Of a stretch of DNA of 64,000 nt, positions 27,201 through 56,436 are shown one piece after another. Both the position numbers and the translations under genes were made by a program. Origin of the DNA: an uncultured cyanobacterium. GTDB lineage: Bacteria; Cyanobacteriota; Cyanobacteriia; Phormidesmidales; Phormidesmidaceae. Under the pieces are notes generated by a model, which was not told the DNA's origin, made no database searches, and saw nothing but the letters and a program-made list of their open reading frames with translations. The first letter of the stretch is position 1, and each line of letters begins with the position of its first letter. The stretch covers positions 640,001 to 704,000 of the forward strand of contig CAWBZI010000006.1 of assembly GCA_963793265.1 (NCBI GenBank), given 5' to 3'.

Positions 27201-27212
27201 AAAATTCTTGCT

Positions 27213-33538: not shown

Positions 33539-33540
33539 GA

Positions 33541-38088: not shown

Positions 38089-38976
38089 TTATGGTGATAA
38101 AAAAGTCATCACAAAGGCCAAACAAACCACGGCATTGCCCACCGGAATAAAAAAGTTGTCGGTGCCTCTTGGGGCTACTAGCTCGATTACGGTTGTGAGC
38201 GTGGCGATCGCCAGCGCTAAGCACCACCAGGGCAGCGGCAGTTGGTTAAAGCTAGCCACTAGCAGTAGCGGGATGAGGCTGCCGAAAAAGACTGCACTTG
38301 TGCCTAATACTGACTTACGGTTGATTTGGCCGATGCCCCAAACGTGTAGCTTTTGCTTGCCCCAAGTAGTGCCTACTAGCTCACCGAGCGCGTCGCCTAT
38401 CGTCAGCGGTAAAAAGACAAAGAAGGAGAACAGCACTAAGTTAGCCGGGTCGGCAACGCTGCCGCGAGCGAGATGATCAATCACTGCTAGCGGCAAAAGG
38501 TTCAGAAAAGAACAGCGTGCGGCAAATAGATTTTTGCGTCCGTAAACGCCATCTCGAATACGGCTAGAAGCGCCGTACATAAGCCCCGCCAGGCCATATA
38601 TTTTGTTTGAGTGATAGCTAATAATGCTCAGCCCCAGCACAAAAATTTGATAGGCCAGCGTTGCGATTAAGGCCACCTCTGTGTCTTTGATCACTAAGTT
38701 AAGAATGGCGAGCTGCCAGAAGCCAGCGACGATATGTAGCAGCTTACGAGAGAGTCCATCTACTACGCACAGCTTGCGATCACCATAGCGATCAACAAAG
38801 TAGTCGAGGTTGAAGTAGTGGGAGCGATCGGAGAACACGAGCTTGCGATCGCCCGAAGGCATCCCGATATAGGCCATCAGCTTCCACTTAAACCAGGCAA
38901 ACGCAGGATAAAGAATCAGAAGTTCTACGCCGAAAATAACGACATATATCAGCGCAATCGAAGAGAGATTTATCAT
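38089..38976 (-). CDS. Phytol/dolichol/diacylglycerol kinase-like (CTP-dependent) membrane protein
   Basis: SRKLLHI, GDALGELVG..WGK, KSVLGT, GTDNFFIP. ATG 38976 overlaps the MFS stop (TGATG). Confidence 0.7.
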   Translation of the reverse strand: MINLSSIALIYVVIFGVELLILYPAFAWFKWKLMAYIGMPSGDRKLVFSDRSHYFNLDYFVDRYGDRKLCVVDGLSRKLLHIVAGFWQLAILNLVIKDTEVALIATLAYQIFVLGLSIISYHSNKIYGLAGLMYGASSRIRDGVYGRKNLFAARCSFLNLLPLAVIDHLARGSVADPANLVLFSFFVFLPLTIGDALGELVGTTWGKQKLHVWGIGQINRKSVLGTSAVFFGSLIPLLLVASFNQLPLPWWCLALAIATLTTVIELVAPRGTDNFFIPVGNAVVCLAFVMTFLSP

Positions 38977-40568
38977 CAAAGAGAAGTCATTGTTTGAGTA
39001 GAACCGTCCGCATTTGGACTCGAACGAATGCAGGTAAAGCTCAGCCCTGCGCCGACTAATAGCGCGATGCCACAGGCCCACACCACGCTATGCAAGCCAG
39101 AAACAAACGCCTGATGAATTGTCTGCTCTAGGGTGACTAAAGAGACGGTTGAAGCATCACCTAAAGCCGCGAGCAGGCGATCAGGGCGGGTCGCCCCATG
39201 GCCCAGCGCTTCAGCAACAACAGCTTGCGCGGCGGCAGGCGCTAGGCCCAACTCAAAGAGCGATCGCCCCAAAGAGAGCCCGAGCCCCTGCGTAAACACG
39301 CTGCCCTGCACCGCAATTCCCAAAGCGCCCCCCAAGCGAGTACTGGTGTTCAACAAAGCGGCGGCAACCCCCGACTGGGCGGCGGGGGCACTCCCCATGC
39401 CCGCAGCCGTGAGCGGAGAGAGCGTGAAGCCTACGCCAAATCCTACGAGCATAAGCTGCCAAAGCATAGCGATGTAGGGCGTGTTTGCCTGCACCTGCCA
39501 GAGAGAAAGGACACCGACAGCCGCGAGTAAAAAGCCTGCTGTGATTGCTTTTCGCCAGCCTAGACGGGCGGAGGCGTAGCCCGAGACTATTGAGGCTAAA
39601 ATAAACGCGCCGTTAAGCGGTAAAAATCGTATGCCCGTCGCGACGGCTGAGTAGCCCTGTACCTGCTGTAGGAACAAGCTAAACAGAAATAACAGGCTCA
39701 CTAGCATAAAGAACAATAGGGCATTTACCACAATCGCACTGGCAAATGTCGGCTGTGAAAATAGCCTCAGCGGCAGCATCGGGTAGGCGCTGCGAGATTC
39801 GATGAAGATAAAGGCAGCAGCACTGCTGAGGGTGAGTAGTCCTAAGATGAGCGATCGCCCCGAGAACAAGCTTGCGCCCTCGCTGCCAGTCAGCATGGTC
39901 ACCAGTGTCGCCAGCGTGACGACGCTTAGCACCATCCCAGGGAAATCTAACCGCCGTTTTTGCAGCGATCGCCGCCCCATCTTTCTGCTCATCGGCACCG
40001 CCCGGCAAGTTAGCCAAAAGGTCGCTACGCCCAAAGGCACGTTCAGAAAAAAGATACTTCGCCAGCCCAAACTATCGACCAAAACGCCACCTAAAGCAGG
40101 CCCAACAATCAGCGCCAACCCCGATACGCCCGACCAGATACCAATCGCCTTAGTTCTCTCTTTTGGGTTAGGAAACACATCGGACAAAATTGCGAGCGAT
40201 GTGGGCAGTAGAGCCGCTGCGCCAATGCCCTGTAACAGGCGTCCTGCGATCGCCATTTGCCCGCCTGCCGCCAGCCCCACCCAAACCGAAGCGCCGACAA
40301 ATACCAGCAGCCCCAACAAAAAGACTTGCCTGCGCCCGTACATGTCCCCTAACAAACCCGCAGGCAGCACCAAACAAGCAATCGGCAACAGATAGCCATT
40401 CAGCATCCATTGCAGCCCAGTAACAGACAGGCCCAAATTAGCCTGCAGGCTTGGCAGCGCCACATTCACCACCGTATCGTCAAGCGCTGACATGCCCAAA
40501 GCAAGGCACATAGCTATCAGGGTCATTGTTTGAGTTTTGGTAGAAACACCTTCAGCCGTAAGCGTCAT
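38976..40568 (-). CDS. DHA2 MFS exporter (3 of 3)
   Basis: LDDTVVNVALP, LGDMYGRR, WRSIFFLNVPLG. ATGA overlap with the upstream GT. Confidence 0.9.
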   Translation of the reverse strand: MTLTAEGVSTKTQTMTLIAMCLALGMSALDDTVVNVALPSLQANLGLSVTGLQWMLNGYLLPIACLVLPAGLLGDMYGRRQVFLLGLLVFVGASVWVGLAAGGQMAIAGRLLQGIGAAALLPTSLAILSDVFPNPKERTKAIGIWSGVSGLALIVGPALGGVLVDSLGWRSIFFLNVPLGVATFWLTCRAVPMSRKMGRRSLQKRRLDFPGMVLSVVTLATLVTMLTGSEGASLFSGRSLILGLLTLSSAAAFIFIESRSAYPMLPLRLFSQPTFASAIVVNALLFFMLVSLLFLFSLFLQQVQGYSAVATGIRFLPLNGAFILASIVSGYASARLGWRKAITAGFLLAAVGVLSLWQVQANTPYIAMLWQLMLVGFGVGFTLSPLTAAGMGSAPAAQSGVAAALLNTSTRLGGALGIAVQGSVFTQGLGLSLGRSLFELGLAPAAAQAVVAEALGHGATRPDRLLAALGDASTVSLVTLEQTIHQAFVSGLHSVVWACGIALLVGAGLSFTCIRSSPNADGSTQTMTSL

Positions 40569-41806
40569 GGGGCTTGCCTGGCAGGAGAGCATAATACGGG
40601 AGCCGCTTCACTCGCCTGACTATCAGCCAAACGCGCCTGTAAAAGATCTAGCACCTCAAAAATGCCGTTGTTCTCAAGCGCTGCTGCATTCGCCCGATAG
40701 CGCTCCAAGGTCGAACCATCGAGTAACTGTTCGACCGCTTTGGGCACCTGCTTAAAACTCTTAAGCACAATACCTACCGCTTTCTCTTTTACCCAGTCGG
40801 TGTTGTAGCGCTCGTGAATCAAAGTGGCTCTATTACACTCTGTAATCACCGGCAGATTCATCACCAGCGCTTCGCTCAGGCTACCGGGGCCAGGCTTACC
40901 AATAAAAAAGTCCGAGAGCTGCATGTAGTAGGGCATATCTTCGGTAAAGGCAACCACGTGCCGCTGCTGCTCTCCCGGTAGCTGCTTTAGCGCGTCCGCT
41001 AGCGCTTCGTTGCGGCCACACACAAAAATAAGCTGGAGGTCGCGCTCAAATCGCTCTAGACTTTCGGCAATATCCACCATCACCTGAGCCCCGTTACCGC
41101 CAAACATCACAATGCCCGTCAGCTTGTCAGCAGCGAGTCCCAGCTTTTGCCGCTCAGCAGCAATGTCTAGCTCAGGGCACTGATAGAACTTGGGGTGAAG
41201 CATCATGCCCGAAGATTTCATGAGAAGAGAGTCATCGACGCCTAGCGTTTGGGCTTGTGCGATCGCCTTCTCAGTCGCGCAAACAGTCGTACAGCTTGCC
41301 TCTGGCTCTAGCCAAAAAGCCGGTGGGTAGTCAGCCAAATCACCCATCACCGTCACGTAAGGCACGCCCGGCCTGGCCGCTTCAAGACTTTTCGAGAGCC
41401 CTTTGTTGTACAGCGGCATCACCGACACCACCAAATCAGGCTGTTGCTTGCGCCAGTGCTGCTCAAAAAACCGAAAGCCCACGTCATAGTTCAGCGCCAC
41501 CATGAACTTATTAAGCCGCATTTTCAGCGGCCACATCCAAGTCCAGCCGCTCTTGAGCATCAGATTGTACAAATCATGGCCGCTCATGCCAAACAGCTCA
41601 TAGGCATTTTGAATCTCATTTTGCGCGGTCAGCTCAGTGATGATCTCATCCATATCTGTCGCCTGAAATTCCCAAGGCAGATCCCTTTGTTCAGCCGCCG
41701 CTTTTAGCGCTCGGTAAGCCGCATAGTGTCCGCCACCGCCTTGCCCTGTGACAACATTTACTTTTAACTTTTTTTGAGAGACGGTTGAAACCATCGGTTG
41801 TATCAT
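40565..41806 (-). CDS. GT28 MGDG-synthase-like glycosyltransferase (3 of 4)
   Basis: GQGGGGH, PDLVVSVMP, FGGNG, IGKPGPGSLSEA; close paralogue of 20243-21457. Confidence 0.85.
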   Translation of the reverse strand: MIQPMVSTVSQKKLKVNVVTGQGGGGHYAAYRALKAAAEQRDLPWEFQATDMDEIITELTAQNEIQNAYELFGMSGHDLYNLMLKSGWTWMWPLKMRLNKFMVALNYDVGFRFFEQHWRKQQPDLVVSVMPLYNKGLSKSLEAARPGVPYVTVMGDLADYPPAFWLEPEASCTTVCATEKAIAQAQTLGVDDSLLMKSSGMMLHPKFYQCPELDIAAERQKLGLAADKLTGIVMFGGNGAQVMVDIAESLERFERDLQLIFVCGRNEALADALKQLPGEQQRHVVAFTEDMPYYMQLSDFFIGKPGPGSLSEALVMNLPVITECNRATLIHERYNTDWVKEKAVGIVLKSFKQVPKAVEQLLDGSTLERYRANAAALENNGIFEVLDLLQARLADSQASEAAPVLCSPARQAP

Positions 41807-41906: not shown

Positions 41907-43046
41907 TCATACCAAAGCCGGTTGCCGCGCAATCTCTTTTTCAAAGATCCCCAGCGCTCGAATAACCGCCTGATCCATGTTGTAATACTTGTAATCGCCC
42001 AAGCGGCCTGCAAACAAAACGCTGCCGTTGAGCTTTTTAGCGTCTTTAAGATAGAGAGAAAGGCGATCGCGATTTTCAGCTCTTGGAATGGGATAATACG
42101 GATCGTTTCGCCCTGGAATATACGCCTGTGGAAACTCTCTTACAAGCGTCGTCTTTGGCGAAACCTGGCCCGTCAGATACTTCTGCTCAGTAATACGAGT
42201 AATGTCATAGTCGTTAGGATAGTTCACCGTTCCTACTTCCTGATAAAACGCCTGATCCAACGTTTCAAAACGAAAGTCAATACTGCGGTAGGGCATTTCC
42301 CCATGAGCATAGTCAAAGAAGGCGTCAATCGGCCCGGTGCACACCGCTCGATTAAAAGAGATATCGTCTATCACCTCTTTATAGTCCGTATTAAGTAAAA
42401 CCTTGATGTTGGGATGATTGAGCATCTGCCCAAACATTTCGGTGTAGCCCTGCTTTGGCATCGCCTGATAGGGATCTTGAAAATAGCGATCGTCCCGGCT
42501 GATATAAATCGGTACCCGCGCCGTAACGCCACTATCTAGCTCCTCTGGCCTCAGGTTCCACTGCTTTTGCGTATAGCGCAAAAATACATTGTCGTAAATG
42601 TAGTCGGCCAAAAAGCCCAGGTCGCCGCTACTAGACTCCTTGAGCTTCAATATCGGCACCTTTTTACCAAAGCCAAAGTTTTGCAGCAAAAGCCCTTCTA
42701 GCTTTTCGGCATAGCTCGGTGGAAACAGCGCGTACAGCGTATTGAGGTTAAACGGAATCGGTACTTTTTTACCCTCAACGACGCCTAGCACATGATGATA
42801 GTAAGGTCGCCACTGCGTAAATTGAGACAGATAGTCCCACACTTCTTTAGACTTTGTGTGAAAAATGTGCGGCCCGTATTTATGAATTAAATGGCCGTGC
42901 TCGTTGTAGTAGTCATAGGCATTTCCCCCAATATGATTGCGCTTTTCAACAATTAGCACCCGCTGCTCAAGCTGAGTTGCAATCCGTTCAGCGAGCACAC
43001 AGGCCGAGTAGCCCGCCCCAATTATCAACCAGTCAAATTTCATCAT
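41907..43046 (-). CDS. glf: UDP-galactopyranose mutase
   Basis: IGGNAYD, HKYGPHIFHT, PYYP, GRLGDYKYYNMDQ. Confidence 0.96.
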   Translation of the reverse strand: MMKFDWLIIGAGYSACVLAERIATQLEQRVLIVEKRNHIGGNAYDYYNEHGHLIHKYGPHIFHTKSKEVWDYLSQFTQWRPYYHHVLGVVEGKKVPIPFNLNTLYALFPPSYAEKLEGLLLQNFGFGKKVPILKLKESSSGDLGFLADYIYDNVFLRYTQKQWNLRPEELDSGVTARVPIYISRDDRYFQDPYQAMPKQGYTEMFGQMLNHPNIKVLLNTDYKEVIDDISFNRAVCTGPIDAFFDYAHGEMPYRSIDFRFETLDQAFYQEVGTVNYPNDYDITRITEQKYLTGQVSPKTTLVREFPQAYIPGRNDPYYPIPRAENRDRLSLYLKDAKKLNGSVLFAGRLGDYKYYNMDQAVIRALGIFEKEIARQPALV

Positions 43047-43070: not shown

Positions 43071-44708
43071 CTAACGAAACGCCACCGTAACCACGTTTGA
43101 ATCCCTTTGGCCATCCGACCGTTCGACGACCGGCTCATCCACCGCCCACCCCGCCGCGCCCGATAGCCGCTGCACCAGATGCTCGGCAACTCGAATAGCG
43201 TTTGCAACAATTGTCAGCGTCGGATTCAGCGCCGCACTAGACGGAAAAAAGCTGCCGTCTACCACATAGAGATTGTCTACATCGTGCGTTTGGCAGTTTA
43301 GATCAAGCACCGAAGTCTGCGGATCTTCTCCAAACCGGCAGGTGCCGCACTGATGTCCGACATCCTTCAGCTCCATTTCTGTTGTGAAGGTCACCGACAG
43401 CGGATCGAGAGACTTTAGCACGCCCTTCCAGCGCTCAATTAGGCGATTAAACGCCTCGTCGTTATTTGGCGTATACTCCAACACAATTTTGCTCTCTTCA
43501 CCAGCACCCTCTAGCCGAATTCGATTGTTTAAATCGGGTAAATCTTCTCCGATTAAAAACCAGGGTGTCGTTCTAGCCGCCGCTGCCTTGAAAATTGCCA
43601 TTGGAATTAGCTTGCTAGGAATAAACGGCGGACTGCTAGTAGCCGCGCGCTCAGCGTTAACGTCTCCAAGCGTTTGAATGTGACCCATAGGATAAGGAAA
43701 GTCTGCCTCGCCCCAGTAATAGTCATTAATCGCCATAGTTTTTGAATAAACTGTCGGGTTCGGCCTGAGCCCCAGTGAAACTAGCGCGCAAATCTTGTGA
43801 CGCATGAAGTTACGCCCAACCAGATCAGAACTGTTGGCTAGGCCATTCGGATGCTGTTCGTTAGCAGAGCGCAAAAGCAGCACCGCCGAGTTGAGCGCGC
43901 CTGCTGAGACAACAACAATATCGGCAGAGAATAAGTAAGTCTCGCCGTTTATTTGAGTCTCTACAGCCGTCACCTTTTTACCCGTCGCGTCCGTGTGCAG
44001 CCGGGTCACCTTAGCGTGCGTCTTAAGCGTGACGTTGGGATACATCATCGTCGGCCTGATCCCATTCACATCTCCGTCAGCTTTGGCATTCACCATGCAA
44101 GGAAACCCATCGCAGGTTTCACAGCGCACGCACTCACTTAAAGATCTATTTGCCTCATTGAGCTTCAGGCCCAAAGGCTGATAGGCAGGATGAAGTCCTT
44201 TCGCCTTGAGCGCTTCACCAATTTCAGCAATCCGGGGCTCGTGGCTAATCGGTGGGAACGGGAACGGTGAATCGCTTGGGGGTTCAGTGGGGTCAGTATC
44301 GCGCAAGCCGTGCACATCAAAGAGCTTTTCGGCCTCGGTGTAATAGGGCTCAAAGTCGCTGTACTTTAGCGGCCATTCAGGCGAAATGCCGCCCTTGTGC
44401 TCCACTTCATCAAAGTCTCTTTCGCGCAGGCGGTAGTGGGCGCTACCGTAAAACTTAGTGTTGCCACCGACAAAATAGTGCGTAAAGGGGCGAAAAGGAT
44501 TGCCGTCTTTGTCGTACCATTCTTCGGCAGTGCGGTAGCGATCGCGCCCATACACTGCTTCCGCATCCCAATTCTCTTTTTCTCTCGGCAAAAAACCACC
44601 GCGCTCTAGCACCAGCACCTTTTTCCCACTCGGCGCAAGCACTCTAGCCAAAGTTCCCCCGGCGGCTCCAGTGCCGATGATGATGATGTCGTAGTCGGTG
44701 CTTTGCAT
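43071..44708 (-). CDS. GMC oxidoreductase with Cys-rich Fe-S-type motif
   Basis: GTGAAG, VGGNTKFYG, CVRCETCDGFPC, VGHQCGT, NPTLT. Confidence 0.88.
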   Translation of the reverse strand: MQSTDYDIIIIGTGAAGGTLARVLAPSGKKVLVLERGGFLPREKENWDAEAVYGRDRYRTAEEWYDKDGNPFRPFTHYFVGGNTKFYGSAHYRLRERDFDEVEHKGGISPEWPLKYSDFEPYYTEAEKLFDVHGLRDTDPTEPPSDSPFPFPPISHEPRIAEIGEALKAKGLHPAYQPLGLKLNEANRSLSECVRCETCDGFPCMVNAKADGDVNGIRPTMMYPNVTLKTHAKVTRLHTDATGKKVTAVETQINGETYLFSADIVVVSAGALNSAVLLLRSANEQHPNGLANSSDLVGRNFMRHKICALVSLGLRPNPTVYSKTMAINDYYWGEADFPYPMGHIQTLGDVNAERAATSSPPFIPSKLIPMAIFKAAAARTTPWFLIGEDLPDLNNRIRLEGAGEESKIVLEYTPNNDEAFNRLIERWKGVLKSLDPLSVTFTTEMELKDVGHQCGTCRFGEDPQTSVLDLNCQTHDVDNLYVVDGSFFPSSAALNPTLTIVANAIRVAEHLVQRLSGAAGWAVDEPVVERSDGQRDSNVVTVAFR

Positions 44709-44746: not shown

Positions 44747-45589
44747 CTAAACAGTCAGCACTGCCTTATCAGCTTCCTTCTCCATTTGCCTTTGCGCACA
44801 GTCTTTATTTGTCTCCACAACGCCCACCTTGCGCAAAATGCGATCGCTCAACTCAGGCGAAAACTGAGAAAGCGCTACAAATACCTTATTCGTCAAACCG
44901 TCCAGCATCACCTCGGGCTGATTCTGCAAAATCACCTGAACCACCACATCCGCAACAGCCTCAGGCGGCGTCACCTTCATCCCCTCAGGAGCCTCTGTTT
45001 CCAAAGCGTGAAACATCCCCGCGTCCGTAATCCCAGGGCACACCACCGAAACATTTACAGGCGAATCCGACAGCTCCAGCCGCACCCCTTCCGACCAGTT
45101 AATCAGCGCCGCTTTCGTCGCAGAATACACGCTGTTAAAGGGCGCGCCTCGCTTACCGGCTCCCGAGGAGATGTTGACAATGTGCCCTGAAGCTCTAGCC
45201 AACATGTCAGGTAGGAGCAGGCGAGCCAGCGCCATCGGAGCCAAAATATTAGTTGCCGTCATCGTTTGAATGTCGTCTAGCGAATAGTTTTGAAAGGCTC
45301 GAAACTTCTCAATAGCCGCGTTGTTGATCAGCACGTCTACTGACCCCATGCGCTGTTCTATTTCACTGACTAAATCAGGCATGTCTTGGATGTTTTGCAG
45401 GTCGAAAGGGAGCGCGATCGCCCGGCACCCGCTGTCTTCCAAAGTTTGAACAAGGGCATCCAAAGGCGCAGGCGATCGCCCCACGCACACCACATTCGCC
45501 TTTTGATCAGCTAGAGCCTTTGCGATCACACTCCCAATACCGCCAGCCGCGCCCGTCAATAAAACAGTTTTTTGAGCCAGTGTTTTCAC
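44747..45589 (-). CDS. Short-chain dehydrogenase/reductase
   Basis: TGAAGGIG, NNAA, YSATK. Confidence 0.92.
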   Translation of the reverse strand: MKTLAQKTVLLTGAAGGIGSVIAKALADQKANVVCVGRSPAPLDALVQTLEDSGCRAIALPFDLQNIQDMPDLVSEIEQRMGSVDVLINNAAIEKFRAFQNYSLDDIQTMTATNILAPMALARLLLPDMLARASGHIVNISSGAGKRGAPFNSVYSATKAALINWSEGVRLELSDSPVNVSVVCPGITDAGMFHALETEAPEGMKVTPPEAVADVVVQVILQNQPEVMLDGLTNKVFVALSQFSPELSDRILRKVGVVETNKDCAQRQMEKEADKAVLTV

Positions 45590-45594
45590 AATTA

Positions 45595-46770
45595 CTATCT
45601 CCGAGAAAGATTGAGTTCTACAGGTTGAGCCACTTCAGGTTGCCAGAGGTCGTCACTAGAAAGAATCTCTTCTAAAATGTCTACGACTTCAAAAGCGGCC
45701 CGGTTACGATAGCCGTTCACACGGGCCTGCACTTGGGCAAACCTCTCAGGCTGCAACAGCGCCGCTAATGCCTCGTCTATCTGCCCAAAGCTAGACACCA
45801 CCGTACCAAAGTCGTTTTGCCTCAGCCAGTCAGCCGTGGCCCGCTCTTGAAAAAGGGTCATCACGTTGTTGCATTCGGTGACCACAGGCAGGCCCAGTGC
45901 GATCGCCTCACTCACCCCAACGCTCCCCGGCTTGCCTATAAAGAAATCAGCCGTCTTCATCAAAGTCGGTAGCTCCTTAGTAAAGCCTTCTACGTGCTTG
46001 ACATAGCGAGTCGGCAGCTCTCGTAGCGCCTCAGCAAGCCGCTGATTACGACCGCACACAAAAATAAGCTGTAGCGGCTGATTGCCCTCGTTTAGCCGCT
46101 GAGCAATCTCCAACATTTCCTGCGATCCGTGGCTACCAAAGCACACCAGCCCCGTTGGCAAATCAGGGTGCAGCCCTAGCCTCTGCCGTTGGGCCACCGG
46201 ATCGACCGTGACCGGCTGATCGTAGCGGGGATGAATCACCACGCCCGAGGTATGAAAAAGACTCTCATCCGCATAGCCCATTGCTTTCGCCTGCTGTGCG
46301 ACCGTAGCAGAAGGGCAGATCATGAGCTGGTCTTGAGGCTCGATCCAGAAGTGTTCAGGGCAGTCGGCAAAGTCTGTTACAGAGGTGATAAAAGGCGTGC
46401 CCGGCAGCGCTTTCCCGACGCTTTCGCACAGCACCCGATTCATCAGGGGCATTAATGAAACCACCATATCGGGCTGCTGCTGCTGCCAGTATTTTGTCAG
46501 CTTCTTCATCCATATGCTGTGCATAACCTGAATGCGAGCTTTGAAAATCGGCACAGAAATTGGATCGTTGATCCGCTTGGCCCACTTGCGTTTGAGAATC
46601 CAGGTGTTGTAAAAGTGCTGTGCAAACGTGGTGTCTAAAACATCTTCGAGCACTTCCACAATTTCGACCTGCCAGGGCAAACCGCGACTCTCAATTACTT
46701 CTTTTAGCGCATTAGCGGTACTGCGATGCCCTGCGCCCATATCGTAAATTGCGAAGATTACTTTTTTCAT
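45595..46770 (-). CDS. GT28 MGDG-synthase-like glycosyltransferase (4 of 4)
   Basis: MGAGHRSTA, PDMVVS, CGRN, IGKPG..VSEA, QE. Confidence 0.85.
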   Translation of the reverse strand: MKKVIFAIYDMGAGHRSTANALKEVIESRGLPWQVEIVEVLEDVLDTTFAQHFYNTWILKRKWAKRINDPISVPIFKARIQVMHSIWMKKLTKYWQQQQPDMVVSLMPLMNRVLCESVGKALPGTPFITSVTDFADCPEHFWIEPQDQLMICPSATVAQQAKAMGYADESLFHTSGVVIHPRYDQPVTVDPVAQRQRLGLHPDLPTGLVCFGSHGSQEMLEIAQRLNEGNQPLQLIFVCGRNQRLAEALRELPTRYVKHVEGFTKELPTLMKTADFFIGKPGSVGVSEAIALGLPVVTECNNVMTLFQERATADWLRQNDFGTVVSSFGQIDEALAALLQPERFAQVQARVNGYRNRAAFEVVDILEEILSSDDLWQPEVAQPVELNLSRR

Positions 46771-47669
46771 AATGAAGTTAGAGGAGTCGGTTGTTTTACG
46801 GGAGCAGGCAGCGGAACTTCTTTGCAGGCTGTTGATTGGTTGGCCTTCTGACGATTGCTTTGAGTGATACCAAGCCAGTCGTTAGAAAGGTCGGCTAGCA
46901 CAGGAAAAATCTGTTCTAGCGCCAGCAGCAGTCGAGTCACAGCTTCTATCCCCCAGTTTTGATTGACAATTACCTCACGGCGGCGATGCAATACCGCATT
47001 GAGAACAGCTTTTGCCACGGTTTGAGAGTGCGATCGCCCCGCCAAAAAAGGCGCTTCTACCCCGGTATCAGCCAGCATCCCCTGGTCAACTACATACCCT
47101 GGACAAATGGCAGACACGCCAATTTGCGAACCAGCAAGCTCCTGGCGCAAAGAGTGATTCCACATCAACAGACCAGCCTTACTTGCCGCATAGGCGCTGT
47201 CAAAGGGATGGCCTTTCTTACTTGCCAAAGAGGCCATATTCACCACATGCCCCTCACCGTTCATCTGCGGCAACAGCAGCCGAGTCAGCGCCATCGCCGC
47301 CAGCAAATTCACCCGAACCACGCGCTCTATCTCGTCTAATCCATAGTCTTGAAAGGCTCGGTAGATTTCAATACCAGCATTGTTGATCAAGATATCAACC
47401 CGGCCCGACGCCATGTTCTTAGCCCGCTGATCAATCTGCCGGGAAAGCTCAGGTATGCGAGCAGTCTCGTTGAGATCGAAAGCAATACCGACCGCCTGCA
47501 CACCATATAGCTCAACGCTTGCTTGCCAGCTATCTAGCTGAGATTGAGATCTGGCAATGCCGATAATGTGGACACCCTGCTGCGCAAAAGCTCTCGAAAT
47601 CTCTAAGCCAATACCGCGCGAGGCTCCGGTCAATACGGCTGTTTTTCCTGACAGTGATAGTCTGTTCAC
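46767..47669 (-). CDS. Short-chain dehydrogenase/reductase
   Basis: TGASRGIG, NNAG, YAASK. Confidence 0.92.
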   Translation of the reverse strand: MNRLSLSGKTAVLTGASRGIGLEISRAFAQQGVHIIGIARSQSQLDSWQASVELYGVQAVGIAFDLNETARIPELSRQIDQRAKNMASGRVDILINNAGIEIYRAFQDYGLDEIERVVRVNLLAAMALTRLLLPQMNGEGHVVNMASLASKKGHPFDSAYAASKAGLLMWNHSLRQELAGSQIGVSAICPGYVVDQGMLADTGVEAPFLAGRSHSQTVAKAVLNAVLHRRREVIVNQNWGIEAVTRLLLALEQIFPVLADLSNDWLGITQSNRQKANQSTACKEVPLPAPVKQPTPLTSL

Positions 47670-49540
47670 GAACCCGTTCCTCCAACTATTGCAGGTTGAG
47701 ATCTTGGCACCTTCAAATCAGGCAAATACCGTCCGCCTAGCTCTATCTGCGAGGTTTCTATTCCCTGCTCAATTCGGTTAAGCAAATAGGACAAATCGCT
47801 AGCCAGCAGATTAATCCCATGATCAGGTTCTACCATGCCCACCAGCGACAAAGGCCGCTGCTTGCTGCTTGCAAGCTGATGAATGCTCAAAAAGTTGAAC
47901 ACCCCTGACTCGTAGGTACCGCAGGGAACTGCTGGATTTTCGACGCCTGCAAAGTCTTCTTGATCGCCAAACCAGTCCCGATCTGGGTAGCCGTGAAAGT
48001 GAATAATGGGCGCGCCGTTTTCGATGAGTTCTGGCGTGTAGAGCGCCGTTGCTAGCGCGATCGCAATCATCACATACGTATCATAAGAAGGCTTGATATC
48101 GGTCTTAGTAACATCAGCCCCTTCAGGCACCTGCAACTGCAACCTATCGTTGATTCCAAGCCGCACAATGTCGCGAGCAGGATCTAAGTTTGTTTTGTCA
48201 GCTCCCGAGCGCGAGCACACTAGCCAAATATCAGGAATCTGTTTGTAAATGGTTTGACTGCCAATCTGCGTTTTAAGATATCGTCGGCCTGCTTCGTTTT
48301 GTCTGATCTCTTCAAAAGAAAAGCCTGCCACGGGCGCAAGAGACTGCCAGTCTTCAGCAAAAATTTCTACAGCACCAAAATACTGTGGCGGCTCGGCATA
48401 GGCAACAAATCCGTAAGAGACGCCCGTTCTACCGTTGACGATCGCACTTACAATGTCGCGATGCGATCGCCTGCGAACCACTTCAGCCAGCTTAAAGCCA
48501 GAGGGGAACAGACCTGTTGTCGCTAAAGATTTGCTAAGGTCTATCAGCTTTTGAGCATAGGTAGAACGCTGAGGTGCGTAGTGGCCCAGATTAAAGCGGC
48601 TGAGGGGTAAAGGCGCAATGGGGACGTAGATTTTAGGGATGAGCGATCGCAGCACAAACGACTCAAGCTTCTCTCTATCAAACAAAGAATCCGACAGATT
48701 CATGTTCAAAATAGAAATTTTGTCAGCCGATACACCAATCACAATCTCTGAGAACTGACTGACCAGCGTATTTACGCCCAGCGCAATCTTTTGAGCATAG
48801 GGTAATTCAGCCTCTACAAAGGTTGGGTCTATCTCAGTGAGCAGCACCACCTGAGTCGCCGTCGGATCTTCTAGCCGTTGAATCGCATGGTCTTCGGCCC
48901 AACCAATTCGCTGGGTAATTTCAGCCACCGAAGCCGGAGCCCCTCGCCACGCTGAAAACTTATACAGGTTCTCAGCAATATAGCTTTTGGCTTTGTTGAT
49001 AGGACGCTCTACATCAATCACCGCGCTAATATCGCTGCGAACCACCGACATCGCAGGCCGTTTGTCTATCGGCAGTTTAGCCACTAGCGGCCCCACCACA
49101 GGCGGCAAATAGTAAAACTCGCGAGTCGCATCGGCCCAGGGCACAATCTCAACGCCATACGCTTGCAAAGTAGTTTCTAGCGCACACCGTAGCTGCAAAA
49201 CGCTATCGGCAATCTTTTTATGCGGTGGCAGCGGGCGAAAAGTCACGCTTAGCTGCCTGGCCATCACCTCTGGATCGACCACAGGAGAAGCATCTTGCCC
49301 GCCGCCAATAAGCTGCCCGATAGTGCGCAGGCTCAGACCGCTAGACGTTGTGCTATTAGCTGCTGGGCCTGTTGTTTTTTGCGTTAAAAGCTGAAGAATC
49401 TCAGCTTTATTTTCAGCAATATCAGCCTTAAGCTGCGGGCTTAACGATCCTTTGGGCGCGTTAATGCGCAACTTGTCACGATCGGCCCATAGCCGGACGC
49501 CTTTACTATCGAGTTGGTGAATCAGTTGCGCAATTGTCAT
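47666..49540 (-). CDS. TubC-type N-terminal docking domain plus class II aldolase-like domain
   Basis: N-term L..L...GVRLW....LRINAPKG.L......K.EIL; C-term SRSGADK, KPSYD, IIHFHG, PCGT, EPDHG. Confidence 0.6.
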   Translation of the reverse strand: MTIAQLIHQLDSKGVRLWADRDKLRINAPKGSLSPQLKADIAENKAEILQLLTQKTTGPAANSTTSSGLSLRTIGQLIGGGQDASPVVDPEVMARQLSVTFRPLPPHKKIADSVLQLRCALETTLQAYGVEIVPWADATREFYYLPPVVGPLVAKLPIDKRPAMSVVRSDISAVIDVERPINKAKSYIAENLYKFSAWRGAPASVAEITQRIGWAEDHAIQRLEDPTATQVVLLTEIDPTFVEAELPYAQKIALGVNTLVSQFSEIVIGVSADKISILNMNLSDSLFDREKLESFVLRSLIPKIYVPIAPLPLSRFNLGHYAPQRSTYAQKLIDLSKSLATTGLFPSGFKLAEVVRRRSHRDIVSAIVNGRTGVSYGFVAYAEPPQYFGAVEIFAEDWQSLAPVAGFSFEEIRQNEAGRRYLKTQIGSQTIYKQIPDIWLVCSRSGADKTNLDPARDIVRLGINDRLQLQVPEGADVTKTDIKPSYDTYVMIAIALATALYTPELIENGAPIIHFHGYPDRDWFGDQEDFAGVENPAVPCGTYESGVFNFLSIHQLASSKQRPLSLVGMVEPDHGINLLASDLSYLLNRIEQGIETSQIELGGRYLPDLKVPRSQPAIVGGTGS

Positions 49541-49582: not shown

Positions 49583-49927
49583 CTAAATCTCAAAGAGGTC
49601 GCTATCGTCAGTAGCGAGTTCTTCAACAATGTGAGCCGAAAGAGAGTCGATGGTAGGACAGTTCCAAATGACGAGCGGAGAAATTTCAAGACCGAAGCGC
49701 TGCTTGCCCTGGGTGGCGATCGCCATTGCCTGCACGGAATCTAAACCATAGCTGTGAAAGGGCGATCGCGTATCGATATCATCCGCCTCTATGCCGAGCT
49801 GTCCGGCCACTTGTTCAGCGAGCCAGTCTTGAATATCAGCTAAGTCCATTGGCAAACTTTCACTGAGTCCAGGCACGGTAGGAGAAGTATTTTTAACGCT
49901 TTGCTGAGCTGTTGATGGAGTAGTCAT
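49583..49927 (-). CDS. Stand-alone acyl carrier protein
   Basis: FHSYGLDSVQA, PTIDSL; acidic tail DDSDLFEI resembles a C-terminal docking peptide. ATG 49927. Confidence 0.88.
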   Translation of the reverse strand: MTTPSTAQQSVKNTSPTVPGLSESLPMDLADIQDWLAEQVAGQLGIEADDIDTRSPFHSYGLDSVQAMAIATQGKQRFGLEISPLVIWNCPTIDSLSAHIVEELATDDSDLFEI

Positions 49928-49943
49928 GGTCGTAAAAACACCG

Positions 49944-52472
49944 TTAGTTGTTATTGATTGCCCGAGAACGCTCTGCATAATAAAGACTCTTCATCGCGTT
50001 GTTTTTGACAGGCCGCTGAGTAGGCACTTGGCGAGAAGCAAACCAGTAAGACGAGCGCTCAAATGGATAGGTCGGCAGCGGCATTTTTTGTCGGCAATAG
50101 CCCGCATCAAAAACCGCCCAGTCAACCTCAGCGCCACTCACAAACAGCTCACCCAAATGAGAGAGAAGCTGCGGCCAAATCTCTATCCCATCCTGCATAG
50201 CTAGCAGCTTTACAGCCCCCAACTCTGCTTTACTCAGGCATCCAAACACAGATCCCTCTACGCCCATACACAGCGCTATGTCATAGCCCGAAAGTCCGGT
50301 TAACGGCAGCTTTTTATAGGTGTCTGGATGATCGCTCGCAGAGACAAACTGCGATACTGCTTGCTGCAACAGTGGGCTATAGGCATTAACGCGCACCTCA
50401 GTAAAAGCGTGGGGAGAAGAAGGGCTAATAGGGGCAGAAATAGCAGCGGTAGCCGCAGAGAGTAGCGGTAGGTGAGGCAGTTTGTAGGTGAGTGACGCAG
50501 CGCTCCAAAGCGGTGTTGTTAGCGGTAAAGACAGCAGGGGCAGCACTTCTCTAATATCTAACAGACCGGAAACGCAGGCTGCGACATATTCGCCTAAGCC
50601 TCTGCCCATCACAGCTCTAGGCACAATGCCCCAGGTTTGCCAGAGGGTGCTAAGCGCGTAGCTCGCGGCAAATCCACTCACCCGTGCCACCGCTGGCTCA
50701 GTTGCAAAAGAAGCCGTTAGGCGGAGCTGCCTCCCAACCAGGCGCGAGCAGAGATCGAAGGATTCGCGGAACACAGGCTGCGTTTTGTACAGGTGGTTGC
50801 CCAGGGCCAAGGTGCCTGCTGTCGCTGGTTCAGGAAAGTAAAACACTATCTTAGGGCGCTTTCTCCTCTGCGCTTTGCCGGTAATAAACTGACTGGCCAG
50901 CAAAGTCTCTTCGCCTTCTGCAAACTGGGCAAGCTGCTGTTGTAAGTGCGATCGCGAATGACTCACCAAACAAAGCCGCTCGGCAAAGTGAGTGCGCCCG
51001 GTATTTGCGGCAAAGCAGATATCGGCCAAGGAAGTCTCGGGCTGTGAGGTAGCAGCCATGCTCCCCTGTCCGCTAAGTAAAAAGTCACTGTAGCGCTGTG
51101 CTAAAGCTCGCAAAGCCGTTTTACTTTTGGCTGTCATCGCAAAAACATGATGCGACCTATCGCCATAAAGCGCGCTGTCGGCAAGTCTCACACCAACCGG
51201 CGTTTCCTCAATCACCAAATGAGCATTCGTGCCGCCAAATCCAAACGTACTCACGCCCGCTATACGAGGTCGCGAGCCGCGCTGCCAGGGTTTACCCGCC
51301 GCCAAAATCTCAAACAATCCGTCATTCAAATCAACATAGTCATTCGCCCGCTCAAAATTTAGCTGCGGCGGAATCTCGCCGTGCTGCAACGCCAGCACTA
51401 CCTTAATCAGGCTGGCAATGCCCGAAGCCGCCTCTAAGTGACCGATACTCGGCTTCAGCGAGCCAATCGTACAGGCTTCTTTACGCCCCGCTGCTAGCAC
51501 CTTTCTCAACGCCTTAAATTCGATGGCATCCCCCAAGGGCGTTCCTACCGCGTGTGCTTCTACATAGTCAACCTCTGCGGGAGTAACAGAACTATTTGCC
51601 AAGCTCTGTTGAATTAAAGCCTGCTGAGCGCGACCGTTAGGAGCAACCATGCTGTTGCTCAATCCATCTTGATTAACAGCCGAACCGCGAATAACAGCCA
51701 AAATATTATCACCATCAGCGATCGCATCATTCAACCGCTTTAGCACCACCACCCCGCAGCCCTCACCTCTCACATAGCCATCGGCATTAGCATCAAAGGG
51801 TCGGCATTCGCCTTTAGCCGAGAGCAGCCCAGTCTGCGAAGAGGAGATCATCGAGTCGGGTGAGAGAATGAGATTAACGCCGCCTGCAATGCCCAGGTTT
51901 GTCTCTTGTGATCGCAAACTCTGCATCGCTAAATGCACAGCTACCAGCGAAGAAGAACAGGCAGCATCTACCGCCATACTCGGCCCTCTTAAGTCCAACA
52001 GATACGAAAGCCGGTTGGCTGTAATCGACATTGTGGTGCCCGTGCCGCTATGCGGGCCAATGCAGTCAAAGTCTTTGTACAGCAGGCGGTGGTAGTCAAT
52101 CGTGCACAGCCCCGTAAACACGCCCGTAGCGCTACCGCCCAAGCCCATCGGAGCAACGCCCGCATGTTCAAGTGCCTCCCATGCCACCTCTAAAAACAAG
52201 CGCTGTTGCGGATCGATATGGGCAGCTTCAGCATCACTGATACCGAAAAAAGACGCGTCAAATTGATCAACATCCTTTAAGAAGCCGCCCCGACAGCTAC
52301 TCATTTTCCCGGCGATGCGAGGGTCAGGATCGTAAAAGTGTGCACTCTCCCAGCGCTCAGTTGGAACCGTGCTAATGGCGCGATCGCCGCTTTGCAACAA
52401 ACGCCAAAAGGCTTCGGGACTATTCGCCTGTGGGAACCGGCAGCCAATGCCGATAATTGCAATAGGTTCCAT
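49944..52472 (-). CDS. Type I PKS: ketosynthase plus degenerate AT
   Basis: DPQQRL, DAACSSS, EAHAVGT, IGHLE. The AT motif GHSxG reads GRGLG; ends with LPTYPF. Confidence 0.9.
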   Translation of the reverse strand: MEPIAIIGIGCRFPQANSPEAFWRLLQSGDRAISTVPTERWESAHFYDPDPRIAGKMSSCRGGFLKDVDQFDASFFGISDAEAAHIDPQQRLFLEVAWEALEHAGVAPMGLGGSATGVFTGLCTIDYHRLLYKDFDCIGPHSGTGTTMSITANRLSYLLDLRGPSMAVDAACSSSLVAVHLAMQSLRSQETNLGIAGGVNLILSPDSMISSSQTGLLSAKGECRPFDANADGYVRGEGCGVVVLKRLNDAIADGDNILAVIRGSAVNQDGLSNSMVAPNGRAQQALIQQSLANSSVTPAEVDYVEAHAVGTPLGDAIEFKALRKVLAAGRKEACTIGSLKPSIGHLEAASGIASLIKVVLALQHGEIPPQLNFERANDYVDLNDGLFEILAAGKPWQRGSRPRIAGVSTFGFGGTNAHLVIEETPVGVRLADSALYGDRSHHVFAMTAKSKTALRALAQRYSDFLLSGQGSMAATSQPETSLADICFAANTGRTHFAERLCLVSHSRSHLQQQLAQFAEGEETLLASQFITGKAQRRKRPKIVFYFPEPATAGTLALGNHLYKTQPVFRESFDLCSRLVGRQLRLTASFATEPAVARVSGFAASYALSTLWQTWGIVPRAVMGRGLGEYVAACVSGLLDIREVLPLLSLPLTTPLWSAASLTYKLPHLPLLSAATAAISAPISPSSPHAFTEVRVNAYSPLLQQAVSQFVSASDHPDTYKKLPLTGLSGYDIALCMGVEGSVFGCLSKAELGAVKLLAMQDGIEIWPQLLSHLGELFVSGAEVDWAVFDAGYCRQKMPLPTYPFERSSYWFASRQVPTQRPVKNNAMKSLYYAERSRAINNN

Positions 52473-52559: not shown

Positions 52560-53939
52560 CTAGGCCGCTGTCTCAAAAAACTGTTTCATCGTTTGCTTGT
52601 TCGCCGCTAGCGCGCTCAAAATAGCGCCCCGACTTTCCATAGCGCCCATCGTCCGATTGACGGGCCACAGATAGTCCACATCAGCAAAAAAGTCTTGCAG
52701 TTCCTTCAGCAATCGCTGCCGATTAGCCGCTGCCGTATGAATACCGCTGTGCTCCTGGCACAGACATTTCTCCATCCAGTGCCTTGCTTCTGTTTTAGAG
52801 AAACCAAACGCAGAAGACTGTAGCAGTTGATACAACAGTTCTAAAATAGTGAAATCATCGGCAAAATAACGGTGAGGCAGCACCGCCGAAAGCCCGCCCA
52901 GCGTGCCTTTTTGCATTTTCAAGATAATGCTGTTGGCGACTATCTTTTCGTAGGCACTCGGCGCTGAGAAGGCTTTGTACAAATCTCTTGCAAGCAGCTT
53001 GGAGATAGTAGTGTGAAAAGCCTCATCTAAAAAGTGATAGCGCGAGATAGCCGTTGGCGCAGGCACCGAGTCTCCTTTGTTTTCTAGCTGCTTGGCATGT
53101 TTGGCGATCGCATGTTCCATATTCTTCAAATACAGGTTCGCAATCATCCGAATGGTATAGAACTGGCAGGCCATAAACGGCGAGCCTGCCCCCCAGCTAA
53201 AGCCATAAAAGCTTTGCCACGGTAGCGACGGGCCAATAGAACGCCCCAGCATCCCCGCCGTCGGTGCCTTCAAGATAAATCGACTATCTTGTTCAACCGT
53301 TTGCAAATACTGGGAGTATTGATGGGGTTGTTTCCCAGCTGTTCTAGCAACCTGTCGAAGCGCGTAATACTGATAGGTTGGCAGCTTCTTTTTGCCCAGC
53401 ATCAGCTTATACGAGTTCCACTTCAGCAGCGCATTGAGCCCCGAGCGCCCAATTAATGCCGTCGCCGTCATCAGACCCACCTTACGGAAAGCCTTAATAT
53501 GATCGTGCTCCTGTTCTGTTTCAAAAGCCAGCTCAGAAGCCAGCGTATCGTAGCCGCCAATCGACTCAAACACGCTAGCTGTCACCTGGTTATACATCAC
53601 CGTTTCGGTTTCCGAATTAGAGATGTAGTTGTAGTTTGCAAACCAGCTCAGATGGTTGAGCGCTAGCTTTTGAGCTTCGGTAGCCTCAGCGTATAAAGGC
53701 GTGCCGTACAGCAAAGAATGGCTGGGATCGCTCCAGAGGCGATCGCGATTCTTTTGATAGCTAAACGTCCGGCTCAAGTCAGCAATTTTCTCGGTATAGT
53801 CAGAATCAAGATTGTTGCGATAGGTCGTCTCAACCAGCCTGGACGTTTTACGCGTCAGCGCGTCATGGGCAGAACGTCTAGACCTTTGGTTAGTTTTTTG
53901 GTCGGCTTTTTGGTCAGGTAGTGCATTAGCAACTGTCAT
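52560..53939 (-). CDS. CylC-type dimetal-carboxylate halogenase (AurF-like fold)
   Basis: LLYGTPLY, ALNHL, SETETVMYNQ, ETEQEHDH, HFLDEAFH; sits between FAAL-ACP and PKS. ATG 53939. Confidence 0.85.
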   Translation of the reverse strand: MTVANALPDQKADQKTNQRSRRSAHDALTRKTSRLVETTYRNNLDSDYTEKIADLSRTFSYQKNRDRLWSDPSHSLLYGTPLYAEATEAQKLALNHLSWFANYNYISNSETETVMYNQVTASVFESIGGYDTLASELAFETEQEHDHIKAFRKVGLMTATALIGRSGLNALLKWNSYKLMLGKKKLPTYQYYALRQVARTAGKQPHQYSQYLQTVEQDSRFILKAPTAGMLGRSIGPSLPWQSFYGFSWGAGSPFMACQFYTIRMIANLYLKNMEHAIAKHAKQLENKGDSVPAPTAISRYHFLDEAFHTTISKLLARDLYKAFSAPSAYEKIVANSIILKMQKGTLGGLSAVLPHRYFADDFTILELLYQLLQSSAFGFSKTEARHWMEKCLCQEHSGIHTAAANRQRLLKELQDFFADVDYLWPVNRTMGAMESRGAILSALAANKQTMKQFFETAA

Positions 53940-53944
53940 AGACT

Positions 53945-54208
53945 CTACGATTCTCCTAAATAACAAACCAAGCTTTCCACTGTCGGATAGTCATACAGCA
54001 AAGTAGGATCGACTTCTTTACCTAGCCAGTCTTCAAGATCTCCGGTCAAGCCGATGGCCGCCGAAGAGTCTAAGCCATAGCTATCAAAGGGCACTTCGGT
54101 ATCAATCTCATCAGAGCTTATTTCTAAAAGTCCTGATAAATAGGCAACAATCCACGCTCTAATCTCTTCATCTGTAACGTTAGAAACCTGTCTTTCTTTA
54201 ACTTCCAT
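53945..54208 (-). CDS. Acyl carrier protein
   Basis: FDSYGLDSSAA, LLYDYPT. Confidence 0.92.
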   Translation of the reverse strand: MEVKERQVSNVTDEEIRAWIVAYLSGLLEISSDEIDTEVPFDSYGLDSSAAIGLTGDLEDWLGKEVDPTLLYDYPTVESLVCYLGES

Positions 54209-54549: not shown

Positions 54550-56436
54550 TTATGATTTATTTTTCCTCTCTATTGTCTTTAAAATTGAATCTACCTCGCT
54601 TTGAATTTTGACAAATTCACTTTTGTGCGTCGGGCTCTCACTCCAGTCTTTTACAATTGCCAGCTCTCCCGATAAAAACAGATCGCGGCAGCGGTAGCGC
54701 TGAAGTTTTCCACTAGAGGTTTTGGGAATGCTCCCAGGCTTTACCAGCAAAGTTGCATACACTTGCAGGTCGTGAGCTGCCGCGATCGCCCGACGAACAC
54801 AGCCACTCACCGCCACTACATCTAGCTTACGCACGTGCGATCGCGCTACCTCCGAGACAATCACCAGCCGCTCTTTGCCTTTATGCTCTATCGAAAAAGC
54901 TGCGATCGCCCCCACCTTCAAAGCCGCATGAGCTGTCTCCAACGTTCGCTCAATATCCTGAGGGTAATAGTTTTTCCCTCGAATAATCATCACATCTTTA
55001 ATGCGCCCAGTCACAAACAGCTCTTGACCTTCTAAAAAGCCCAGATCTCCCGTCCGCAAAAATGGCCCCGCAAAAGTATCTGCCGTATAGGCTTGAAAAG
55101 TCTGCGAAGTCTCCTCGGGCTTTCGCCAATAGCCTTTGGCCACGCTTTCGCCCTGCACCCAGATCTCACCCACTTCACCAGACGAACAACACGTCAGCGT
55201 CTCAGGATGAACAATCTTCACGCGCTGATCCTGCAGGCTTTGGCCGCAGCCAACAACCGTCACAAACCCGAAATCATTCTTCTTATTCTTGTCAGCTTCA
55301 CCGACCGCTTCCACTTGATGTTGACCAAGCTTTTGGGCATCAACGTGTTTTATTGTTGGCTTCGCGGCTATCTCACCGCCCGATACGATTAGGGTTGTCT
55401 CAGCCATGCCATAGCAAGGATAGAAAGCCTCACTGCTAAAGCCGTAGGGCTCAAAAACTTCACCAAACCGGGCCAGGGTGTCAGCGCGAATAGGCTCTGC
55501 CCCGGTAAAGGCAACCTGCCAACTGCTCAGATCAAGACCTTTTAGCGGTGCCGGATTCTCTTCACGTGAGAGCAAAATTTGGGCTTTGCGAGCACATAAA
55601 TCGTAGGCAAAATCTGGCCCGCCGCTGGTTGTTCCTCTATAGTCAGAAACGGCTCGCAGCCAGCGTAAAGGCTTTTGCAAAAAATCAACCGGAGACATCA
55701 GCGTTACTTCAAAGCCGCCGTATAGTGGCTGAAGAATACCCCCAATCAAACCCATATCGTGATACGGCGGTAGCCAGATAACGCCTTTGCTATCTGCACT
55801 ATGACCAAAGCAACGGTGAATTGCTGCTAGGTTATGCAACAGATTTTCTTGAGTGACCATGACACCCTTAGGCGTACCTGTCGATCCCGAAGTGTACTGT
55901 AAGAACGCAAGCGAACTAGGCGTAGCGTTGCGATCCCAAAAGTGGGCGTCTGCTGGCACATCTTCTGTAATCACATCTACCGAAAGCCACGGAATATCTG
56001 CTAAAGGCGATGATTCGTCAAACCATTTTCCAATCTTGTCGGCTAGATCAGCTGTGGTGAGGACAGCCGTTGCCGCTGAATCATCCACAATAGAAAGCAG
56101 CCGCAGCAGCTTTTGGTTTTTACGGGGAGGATAAGCCGGTACCGCCGTAACCCCTGCGTACAGGCATCCCAAGAAGGCTGTCACAAAATCCAGACCGGGA
56201 GAGAACAGCAGCAGCGCCCGCCCGCCTGTGATGTTAAGCGATCGCAAATGAGCAGCTACCGCCCGAGCCCGAGCCCGCAGCGTTTGATAGTCCATCTGAC
56301 CATCAGGCACCTCGCCTCTTCGCAAGTACCGATAGGCAAGGTCGTGCGGCTGATGCTGCGCGCGATAGTCTAACAGTTCAGTGAAGCTCAAACCTGCCGG
56401 AACAATCTCTGATGAGATCTGTAAAGTTGTTGTCAC
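54550..56436 (-). CDS. Fatty acyl-AMP ligase (FAAL)
   Basis: FLQYTSGSTGTPKGV, WLPPYHDMGLIG, YPCYGMAE, FAAL-type insertion after SGG, IPKTSSGKLQR. Confidence 0.92.
   Translation of the reverse strand: MTTTLQISSEIVPAGLSFTELLDYRAQHQPHDLAYRYLRRGEVPDGQMDYQTLRARARAVAAHLRSLNITGGRALLLFSPGLDFVTAFLGCLYAGVTAVPAYPPRKNQKLLRLLSIVDDSAATAVLTTADLADKIGKWFDESSPLADIPWLSVDVITEDVPADAHFWDRNATPSSLAFLQYTSGSTGTPKGVMVTQENLLHNLAAIHRCFGHSADSKGVIWLPPYHDMGLIGGILQPLYGGFEVTLMSPVDFLQKPLRWLRAVSDYRGTTSGGPDFAYDLCARKAQILLSREENPAPLKGLDLSSWQVAFTGAEPIRADTLARFGEVFEPYGFSSEAFYPCYGMAETTLIVSGGEIAAKPTIKHVDAQKLGQHQVEAVGEADKNKKNDFGFVTVVGCGQSLQDQRVKIVHPETLTCCSSGEVGEIWVQGESVAKGYWRKPEETSQTFQAYTADTFAGPFLRTGDLGFLEGQELFVTGRIKDVMIIRGKNYYPQDIERTLETAHAALKVGAIAAFSIEHKGKERLVIVSEVARSHVRKLDVVAVSGCVRRAIAAAHDLQVYATLLVKPGSIPKTSSGKLQRYRCRDLFLSGELAIVKDWSESPTHKSEFVKIQSEVDSILKTIERKNKS

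Follow-up and report, generated by a model that had tools for sequence, protein, structure and literature searches.

Gene X, an NglG-family protein and candidate chain terminator in a cyanobacterial lipid gene cluster

NglG and gene X

The closest described system to the gene reported here is the ngl cluster of Nostoc punctiforme, which is linked to the nostochlorosides, chlorinated glycolipids with a C21 tail built on palmitate (C16) and a 1,2-diol head, and with neither a carboxyl group nor a derivative of one (PMC10849952). The authors of that work write that nostochloroside termination "involves an uncharacterized mechanism" and that the five-carbon extension of palmitate has little precedent (PMC10849952). 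According to its Supplementary Note 3, none of the ngl polyketide synthases (PKSs) has a thioesterase (TE) domain, a TE is judged insufficient to explain the termination, and the third ketosynthase (KS), NglF, has H changed to Q at residue 344. The same note describes NglG (Npun_F3362 of N. punctiforme ATCC 29133) as a hypothetical protein that combines a docking domain of the PKS kind with what may be an aldolase domain. It proposes, as a hypothesis, that NglG ends the line by C-C cleavage of a larger product, and it mentions several hundred NglG homologues in PKS clusters that lack termination domains (PMC10849952, Supplementary Note 3). Here we analyse gene X, a single open reading frame (ORF) of 624 amino acids with an ATG start, at 47666..49540 on the minus strand of a cyanobacterial DNA stretch of 64,000 nucleotides (contig CAWBZI010000006.1; the whole stretch is called the window below). 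The protein, which is also labelled P0001 in our alignments, has exactly the extent given to it in an initial annotation made from the sequence.

Our comparison places X as a new and real member of the uncharacterised NglG family, in a cluster that is related to ngl and simpler. Besides the docking domain it has a core of some 560 residues whose C-terminal part is aldolase-like, and its gene stands behind the final carrier protein of a PKS-type cluster in which no known termination domain was found. The template ranges listed for NglG in Supplementary Table 10 (TubC 2-55; 2z7b 450-598) fit the layout of P0001 (PMC10849952). The link between the window protein and NglG runs through ngl-type loci of other Nostoc strains. 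At three of these (L043, L045 and L056) the cluster layout is that of ngl, the KS-acyl carrier protein (ACP) before X has Gln at exactly residue 344, which is the hallmark reported for NglF, and the X proteins are 54-55% identical to P0001 over 610 residues. Across the ngl-type loci, Gln or Asn stands where the last KS would have its first His.

The initial annotation had offered the release of an acyl chain by an aldolase-like domain as a possible new chemistry. Because the same proposal was published for NglG (PMC10849952, Supplementary Note 3), the idea was already in print as a hypothesis and its novelty was overstated, so that the interest of X lies in the unsolved chemistry and not in the idea itself. 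No biochemical characterisation of an NglG-type terminator was found in the literature searched, and a search for class II aldolases together with PKS chain release, docking domains and cyanobacteria returned no paper with the words 'class II aldolase'. An identification of X with all5343 of the heterocyst-glycolipid island was rejected, as tables of GT2-domain genes place all5343 at 6376587-6377849, a length of about 420 codons (PMC2211374).

Docking domain, fold and conserved residues

Residues 3-54 of X match the Pfam family TubC_N (PF18563) with an E value of 2.6e-17 (score 63.1 bits, cut-off 26; the match spans positions 1-52 of the 52 in the profile), and a single-sequence search of the PDB finds only the docking domains of EpoB, AerJ and TubC. 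The first 56 residues also superpose on the domains of AerJ, EpoB and the enacyloxin protein (6cgo) with a root-mean-square deviation of 1.1-1.4. Outside TubC_N nothing in X is matched by Pfam (E <= 0.01) or NCBIfam, and condensation, adenylation and KS domains are absent; both the TubC-type domain of about 55 residues and the absence of these three domains had been correctly read in the initial annotation. The same holds for the position of the gene directly after an ACP with an acidic docking-like tail. This ACP, here called ACP2, is the presumed docking partner of X. It ends with ...ELATDDSDLFEI, where the short C-terminal stretch DDSDLFEI forms an acidic-hydrophobic tail of docking type, and 42 nucleotides separate it from the start codon of X. 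The arrangement recurs among the 80 named loci on which our context counts rest. In 71 of them the sequence immediately upstream of X encodes an ACP with a tail of this kind, either free-standing or as the final domain of a PKS (61 by a pattern and 10 more on inspection), and in a second set of loci a tailed ACP precedes X in 16 of 17. The tail consensus, A-E-E-L-x-x-S-x-S-E-x-F-[EQ]-I, is conserved in a 30-sequence alignment. In the other nine loci, X is preceded by a PapA/condensation-like gene (seven), follows a PKS of 1931 amino acids (one) or lies at a contig edge (one).

The C-terminal half of X carries the motifs CSRSGADKT (442-450), KPSYD (483-487), IIHFHG (512-517), VPCGTYE (538-544) and EPDHG (571-575), all of them in the order in which they were first noted. 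Conservation was scored across 54 aligned homologues, the most distant at about 22% identity. Invariant in this alignment are P310, R371, G377, S445, G446, K449, D457, S485, D487, H514, H516, G532, C540, E571, H574 and G575, a set with eleven polar residues that include three His, Cys, Asp, Glu, Lys and Arg. Because the motif residues are invariant over such a range, the motifs are, at the level of sequence, more than chance. H514, H516 and H574 are candidate metal ligands, as they come in the expected order of HxH and a later His. An AlphaFold2 model of X was built on 39 sequences (mean predicted local distance difference test score 85.2, predicted template modelling score 0.87). When it was compared with the PDB by Foldseek, every match listed to rank 18 (E <= 1e-3) belonged to the class II aldolase superfamily, these being RhuA, a Thermotoga sugar-phosphate aldolase, YgbL and AraD, with FucA, TqaM, NovR and pyruvic oxime dioxygenase just under them. 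These matches support, at the structure level, the class II aldolase-like fold that had been predicted for this half of the protein. For the middle domain (about 90-310) the best structural matches are phosphopantothenoylcysteine synthetase (PPCS; CoaB) domains.

The motif order of X is SG..K, then S485/D487 (S-x-D), H514/H516 on a strand and H574-G575 in a hairpin. An Aldolase_II alignment from cyanobacterial genomes has S76/E78, H96/H98 and H170-G171, with an SGVDKG stretch in its first sequence. Order and spacing are similar in the two, and it is by order that the positions are equated, including the invariant S445-G446..K449 and S485-Y-D487 of X and their counterpart loops in the aldolases.

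The homologue search gave 744 proteins at E <= 1e-3 among 8000 candidates scored, a number in which some may match the docking domain alone, since the query included it. The 120 matches listed are 605-693 amino acids long, all have TubC_N and all are at least 52% identical. In a species-representative genome collection 210 X stretches were confirmed, and matches were present in 24 of 301 sampled cyanobacterial genomes, 20 of these 24 being among the 35 genomes of one family. Pfam on 28 family representatives found nothing for 27, the exception being a TE fusion (see below). Three cluster contexts were seen in the 80 loci. About 20-21 loci are syntenic with the window, tailoring genes included; most of the 80 are PUFA (polyunsaturated fatty acid)-synthase-like "hgl-like islands", which are described as widespread and of unknown product (PMC11804610); and a small number are type I PKS clusters that include a CylK-RTX gene. 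In all three types of biosynthetic gene cluster X stands at the end of the carrier-protein line. The X phylogeny (FastTree) tracks the cluster type, and the window protein falls in a 6-row clade of the window-syntenic type with support 100. After X a short-chain dehydrogenase/reductase (SDR) or extended SDR is found in 44 of the 80 loci (a classical SDR within 400 nucleotides downstream in 29), which fits a carbonyl product. At two of the hgl-like islands the genes that come directly after X are housekeeping ones, namely pipX, a YggS-like gene, sepF and proC (L046, 12058-14956) and a YggS-like gene, sepF and proC (L013, 1870-4384).

Natural variants of X bear on its function. Two proteins, P0343 (1284 amino acids) and P0344 (1249 amino acids), are fusions of a fatty acyl-AMP ligase (FAAL), an ACP and X by Pfam, with a covalent link where X has its docking domain. 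P0343 matches residues 41-610 of P0001 at 47% identity and keeps every motif. X therefore works with an ACP and, in the fusions, on a plain fatty acyl thioester without a KS step. Another relative, P0138, consists of the docking domain, an X-like core and a C-terminal TE. Its core has other residues at the positions of H514, H516, H574 and C540 and lacks the SG..K loop. This loss would fit the aldolase-like site as the normal off-loading site, and it would fit plain hydrolysis as well. A further group (P0148-P0235) comprises homologues of the core without a docking domain, of about 500-565 amino acids and 23-30% identity, which retain the SG..K, S-x-D, HxH, Cys and E-P-x-H-G motifs.

Proposed chain release by X and the alternatives

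We take X to be a trans-acting terminator of a small fatty-acid/polyketide assembly line, of the NglG family, with a probability of about 0.7, and most likely it unloads the completed chlorinated lipid chain from the carrier protein. An ACP-dependent off-loading role was part of the initial annotation and has gained support from the FAAL-ACP-X fusions and from the TE-fused relative that has lost the candidate metal site. What the analysis shows are the domain folds, the conservation of the motifs, the gene order, the conserved ACP tail, the fusion variants and the absence of a TE or thioester reductase match among the 45 window ORFs scanned; the binding of ACP2, the metal, the donor and the reaction are what we infer. 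The aldol-type or decarboxylative C-C coupling to a sugar or triose phosphate that the initial annotation gave as an example is one of several hypotheses for that reaction. In the line proposed here, the FAAL would load a fatty acid onto ACP1, the CylC-like enzyme would chlorinate the ACP1-bound chain, and the KS would pass the chain, or extend it once, onto ACP2. The window KS retains Cys169, His307 and His345. The acyltransferase (AT) of the same protein has no active-site Ser, because its motif reads GRGLGE, and the KS may extend the chain or only transfer it. The docking domain of X would then capture the ACP2 tail, and the acyl-phosphopantetheine thioester would be brought to the aldolase-like domain, where a metal on H514, H516 and H574, with D487 or E571 as acid/base, would perform the release.

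DHAP (dihydroxyacetone phosphate)-dependent members of the fold such as FucA and RhuA form enediolates. By analogy with them, the chemistry that we tentatively favour is one in which the metal would stabilise the enediolate of a phosphorylated hydroxy-ketone donor, whose phosphate the Ser/Gly/Lys loops of X could hold. The carbanion would attack the thioester carbonyl, possibly after acyl transfer to the invariant C540, and the chain would leave the ACP as a hydroxy-ketone through C-C bond formation. The adduct would then be cleaved, and the neighbouring SDRs would reduce it to a polyol lipid, which the glycosyltransferases (GTs) would glycosylate. We favour this route because it would supply both the additional carbon and the 1,2-diol found in the nostochlorosides, because the DHAP-dependent members of the fold make enediolates, and because of the SDRs after X. 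Somewhat more doubtful is a joint reading in which the PPCS-like middle domain would hold the phosphopantetheine arm during such an enediolate C-acylation. Equally speculative is the extension to the several hundred relatives of X, by which the enediolate of a phosphorylated ketose or of DHAP would be C-acylated by the ACP thioester, possibly through Cys540, and then trimmed and reduced to odd-numbered vicinal-diol lipids such as the C21 nostochloroside tail.

Several results weigh against a terminator of this kind. At the level of profiles, hhalign of the X family against the Aldolase_II alignment gives a probability of 0.06%, a six-frame genome scan with PF00596 finds another gene, on contig C1 only, and not X, the Pfam search (E <= 0.01) gives no match of X to this model, and the family-profile search of the PDB is empty save for GlyRS at E 2.6. 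No usable match for X was found in the ESM Atlas. Within the domain, X has Asp where the S-x-E motif of the aldolases has the catalytic Glu, and about 100 residues of the stretch 322-600 are unaligned to aldolases. On the side of the pathway, no gene for making the donor substrate was found, no reductase follows X in 36 of the 80 loci, and some hgl-like islands have no cluster gene beyond X. P0138 is a single sequence, seen on two contigs, and it could equally mean that X normally just hydrolyses. Docking-less homologues also occur where there is no PKS cluster, including one in a Candidatus Campbellbacteria genome, and therefore the core is not inherently an enzyme for ACPs.

Three alternatives, namely hydrolysis, decarboxylation and O2-dependent cleavage, cannot be told apart by the fold alone. 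X could be a metal-dependent thioester hydrolase that docks on the ACP and frees a (chloro)fatty or 3-oxo acid, the head group being built by other enzymes. P0138, with a TE fused to a core whose own candidate site is lost, looks as if the two activities were interchangeable. A release by hydrolysis would also suit the minimal hgl-like loci that end with X and have no reductase after it, as well as the window, where a scan of 45 ORFs (17 at E <= 0.01 and 28 at E <= 1e-6) gave no match to a TE (PF00975) or to the thioester reductase domain NAD_binding_4 (PF07993), as the initial annotation had stated for the cluster. Against this, hydrolysis is not among the reactions listed for the matched members of the fold, and the conserved SG..K and S-x-D loops beside the His residues suggest, by motif resemblance, a second and possibly phosphorylated substrate. 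Further, the nostochlorosides have no carboxyl group or derivative, and their authors judged a thioesterase insufficient (PMC10849952, Supplementary Note 3). We therefore consider a plain hydrolase unlikely.

A decarboxylase, which would release a 3-oxoacyl chain and lose CO2 to give a methyl ketone, reduced by the SDR to a 2-alkanol for glycosylation, appears to us improbable. It needs a 3-oxo group, but the FAAL-ACP-X fusions have no KS to make one, the AT of the window KS is without its Ser, and the ngl-type last KS has Gln or Asn for the first His, the ngl KS being regarded as non-extending by the authors (PMC10849952). A methyl ketone would also leave the 1,2-diol of the nostochlorosides unexplained. 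In the least probable of the alternatives, X would belong with non-haem iron enzymes that depend on O2, such as NovR, TqaM or pyruvic oxime dioxygenase, and would cleave or oxidatively decarboxylate the ACP-bound chain. These three proteins are among the structural matches, but they score below the Zn aldolases, though within about 3 Z units, and the sequence does not tell iron from zinc.

If a C-C bond is indeed made or broken by the aldolase-fold domain of X, this would be a new off-loading chemistry in the PKS toolbox and would explain odd-chain diol glycolipids. For testing it the window offers a simpler system than ngl, with one FAAL, halogenase, KS, ACP and X, and the FAAL-ACP-X fusions are simpler still.

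Gene neighbourhood and comparison with known systems

The features of the cluster are collected in Table 1. From the FAAL to the CylK homologue they form a run of co-directional genes that includes X.

Table 1. Coordinates of the cluster genes and of the domains of X in the window.
Feature	Coordinates	Strand	Evidence
FAAL	54550..56436	-	AMP-binding E 7.8e-63 and DIP2-like C-terminal domain
ACP1, loading carrier for FAAL	53945..54208	-	PP-binding E 9.9e-16
Putative CylC-type dimetal halogenase	52560..53966	-	Weak AurF match, E 1.4e-4, below cut-off
KS with degenerate AT	49944..52472	-	Pfam and motifs
ACP2, stand-alone, presumed docking partner	49583..49978	-	PP-binding E 1.7e-17
Gene X, NglG-family protein: docking, PPCS-like alpha/beta and class II aldolase-like domains	47666..49540	-	ORF, homologues, structure model
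TubC_N / beta-hairpin docking domain, residues 1-56 of X	49373..49540	-	
Three-layer alpha/beta domain, residues ~90-310 of X	48611..49273	-	Best structural matches CoaB domains
Class II aldolase/adducin-like domain, residues ~322-600 of X	47741..48577	-	Fold matches and invariant columns
SDR, candidate reductase of released product	46767..47669	-	adh_short E 1.2e-47; 4-nucleotide overlap with end of X
GT	45595..46770	-	Pfam
SDR	44747..45589	-	Pfam
GMC oxidoreductase	43071..44708	-	Pfam
UDP-galactopyranose mutase	41907..43046	-	Pfam
GT28-like GT	40565..41806	-	Pfam
MFS (major facilitator superfamily) transporter	38976..40592	-	
CylK homologue, 891 amino acids, C-terminal RTX region	34984..37659	-	phmmer to CylK 7fh6 E 1.3e-87; SBBP and HemolysinCabind

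The putative halogenase has no match in the PDB and is conserved at 43-80% identity in the syntenic loci; it is named CylC-type because in ngl the CylC homologue NglC is a neighbour of the genes for the FAAL and the ACP (PMC10849952, Supplementary Note 2). The CylK homologue has beta-propeller repeats and RTX, an architecture described for NglO, and its presence suggests that the chlorinated lipid is further alkylated or oligomerised. Just downstream of it (29861-34935, minus strand) lie an AcrB-type transporter of 1225 amino acids with a fused response-regulator receiver domain and, beside it, an HlyD-type membrane-fusion protein, a pair that may be the exporter for the lipid. The divergent genes at 20243-29859 (plus strand), which may belong to the same cluster as X, encode an MGDG (monogalactosyldiacylglycerol)-synthase-like GT, a DegT-type sugar aminotransferase, two MFS transporters, an FG-GAP protein and a protein of 876 amino acids with FAD_binding_4 and ALO domains. 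Among the ngl-type loci, L045 has an ALO/FAD_binding_4 protein and then an SDR after X, and L043 has UbiA and a HAD hydrolase there. An ORF of 330 amino acids at 38089-39081 (minus strand) is without a Pfam or NCBIfam match and is 54-78% identical to its counterparts in three syntenic loci (L019, L021 and L027). Elsewhere on the minus strand of the window are two adjoining HEPN-domain ORFs of 151 amino acids each (17448-18722) and a NACHT-domain protein of 716 amino acids (61113-63263).

Compared with ngl, the window cluster has only a single KS, which retains both His and is joined to a dead AT, and its ACP is separate. The sugar genes also differ, being a UDP-galactopyranose mutase and two MGDG-synthase-like GTs, and the window-type X proteins form tree groups apart from the ngl-type clade. 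The class II aldolase/adducin superfamily (PF00596), to which the C-terminal domain is likened, counts FucA, RhuA, AraD, MtnB/APIP, the HMPD decarboxylase, NovR, TqaM and pyruvic oxime dioxygenase among its members, which are homo-oligomers with the active site between subunits. X differs from them in having no detectable sequence-profile similarity, Asp for the motif Glu and an invariant Cys, in the fusion of this domain to docking and PPCS-like domains, and in a presumed substrate that is bound to a carrier. Beta-hairpin docking domains are found on other trans-acting enzymes, such as the chain-releasing condensation protein of enacyloxin (6cgo) and the halogenase AerJ (8aqq), but the catalytic domain of X is neither a condensation domain nor a halogenase. 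In butenolide biosynthesis AfsA moves a 3-oxoacyl chain from an ACP to DHAP, so that the transfer of an acyl chain from its carrier to a triose phosphate has a precedent. The fold of AfsA is unrelated to that of X, and AfsA forms an ester first.

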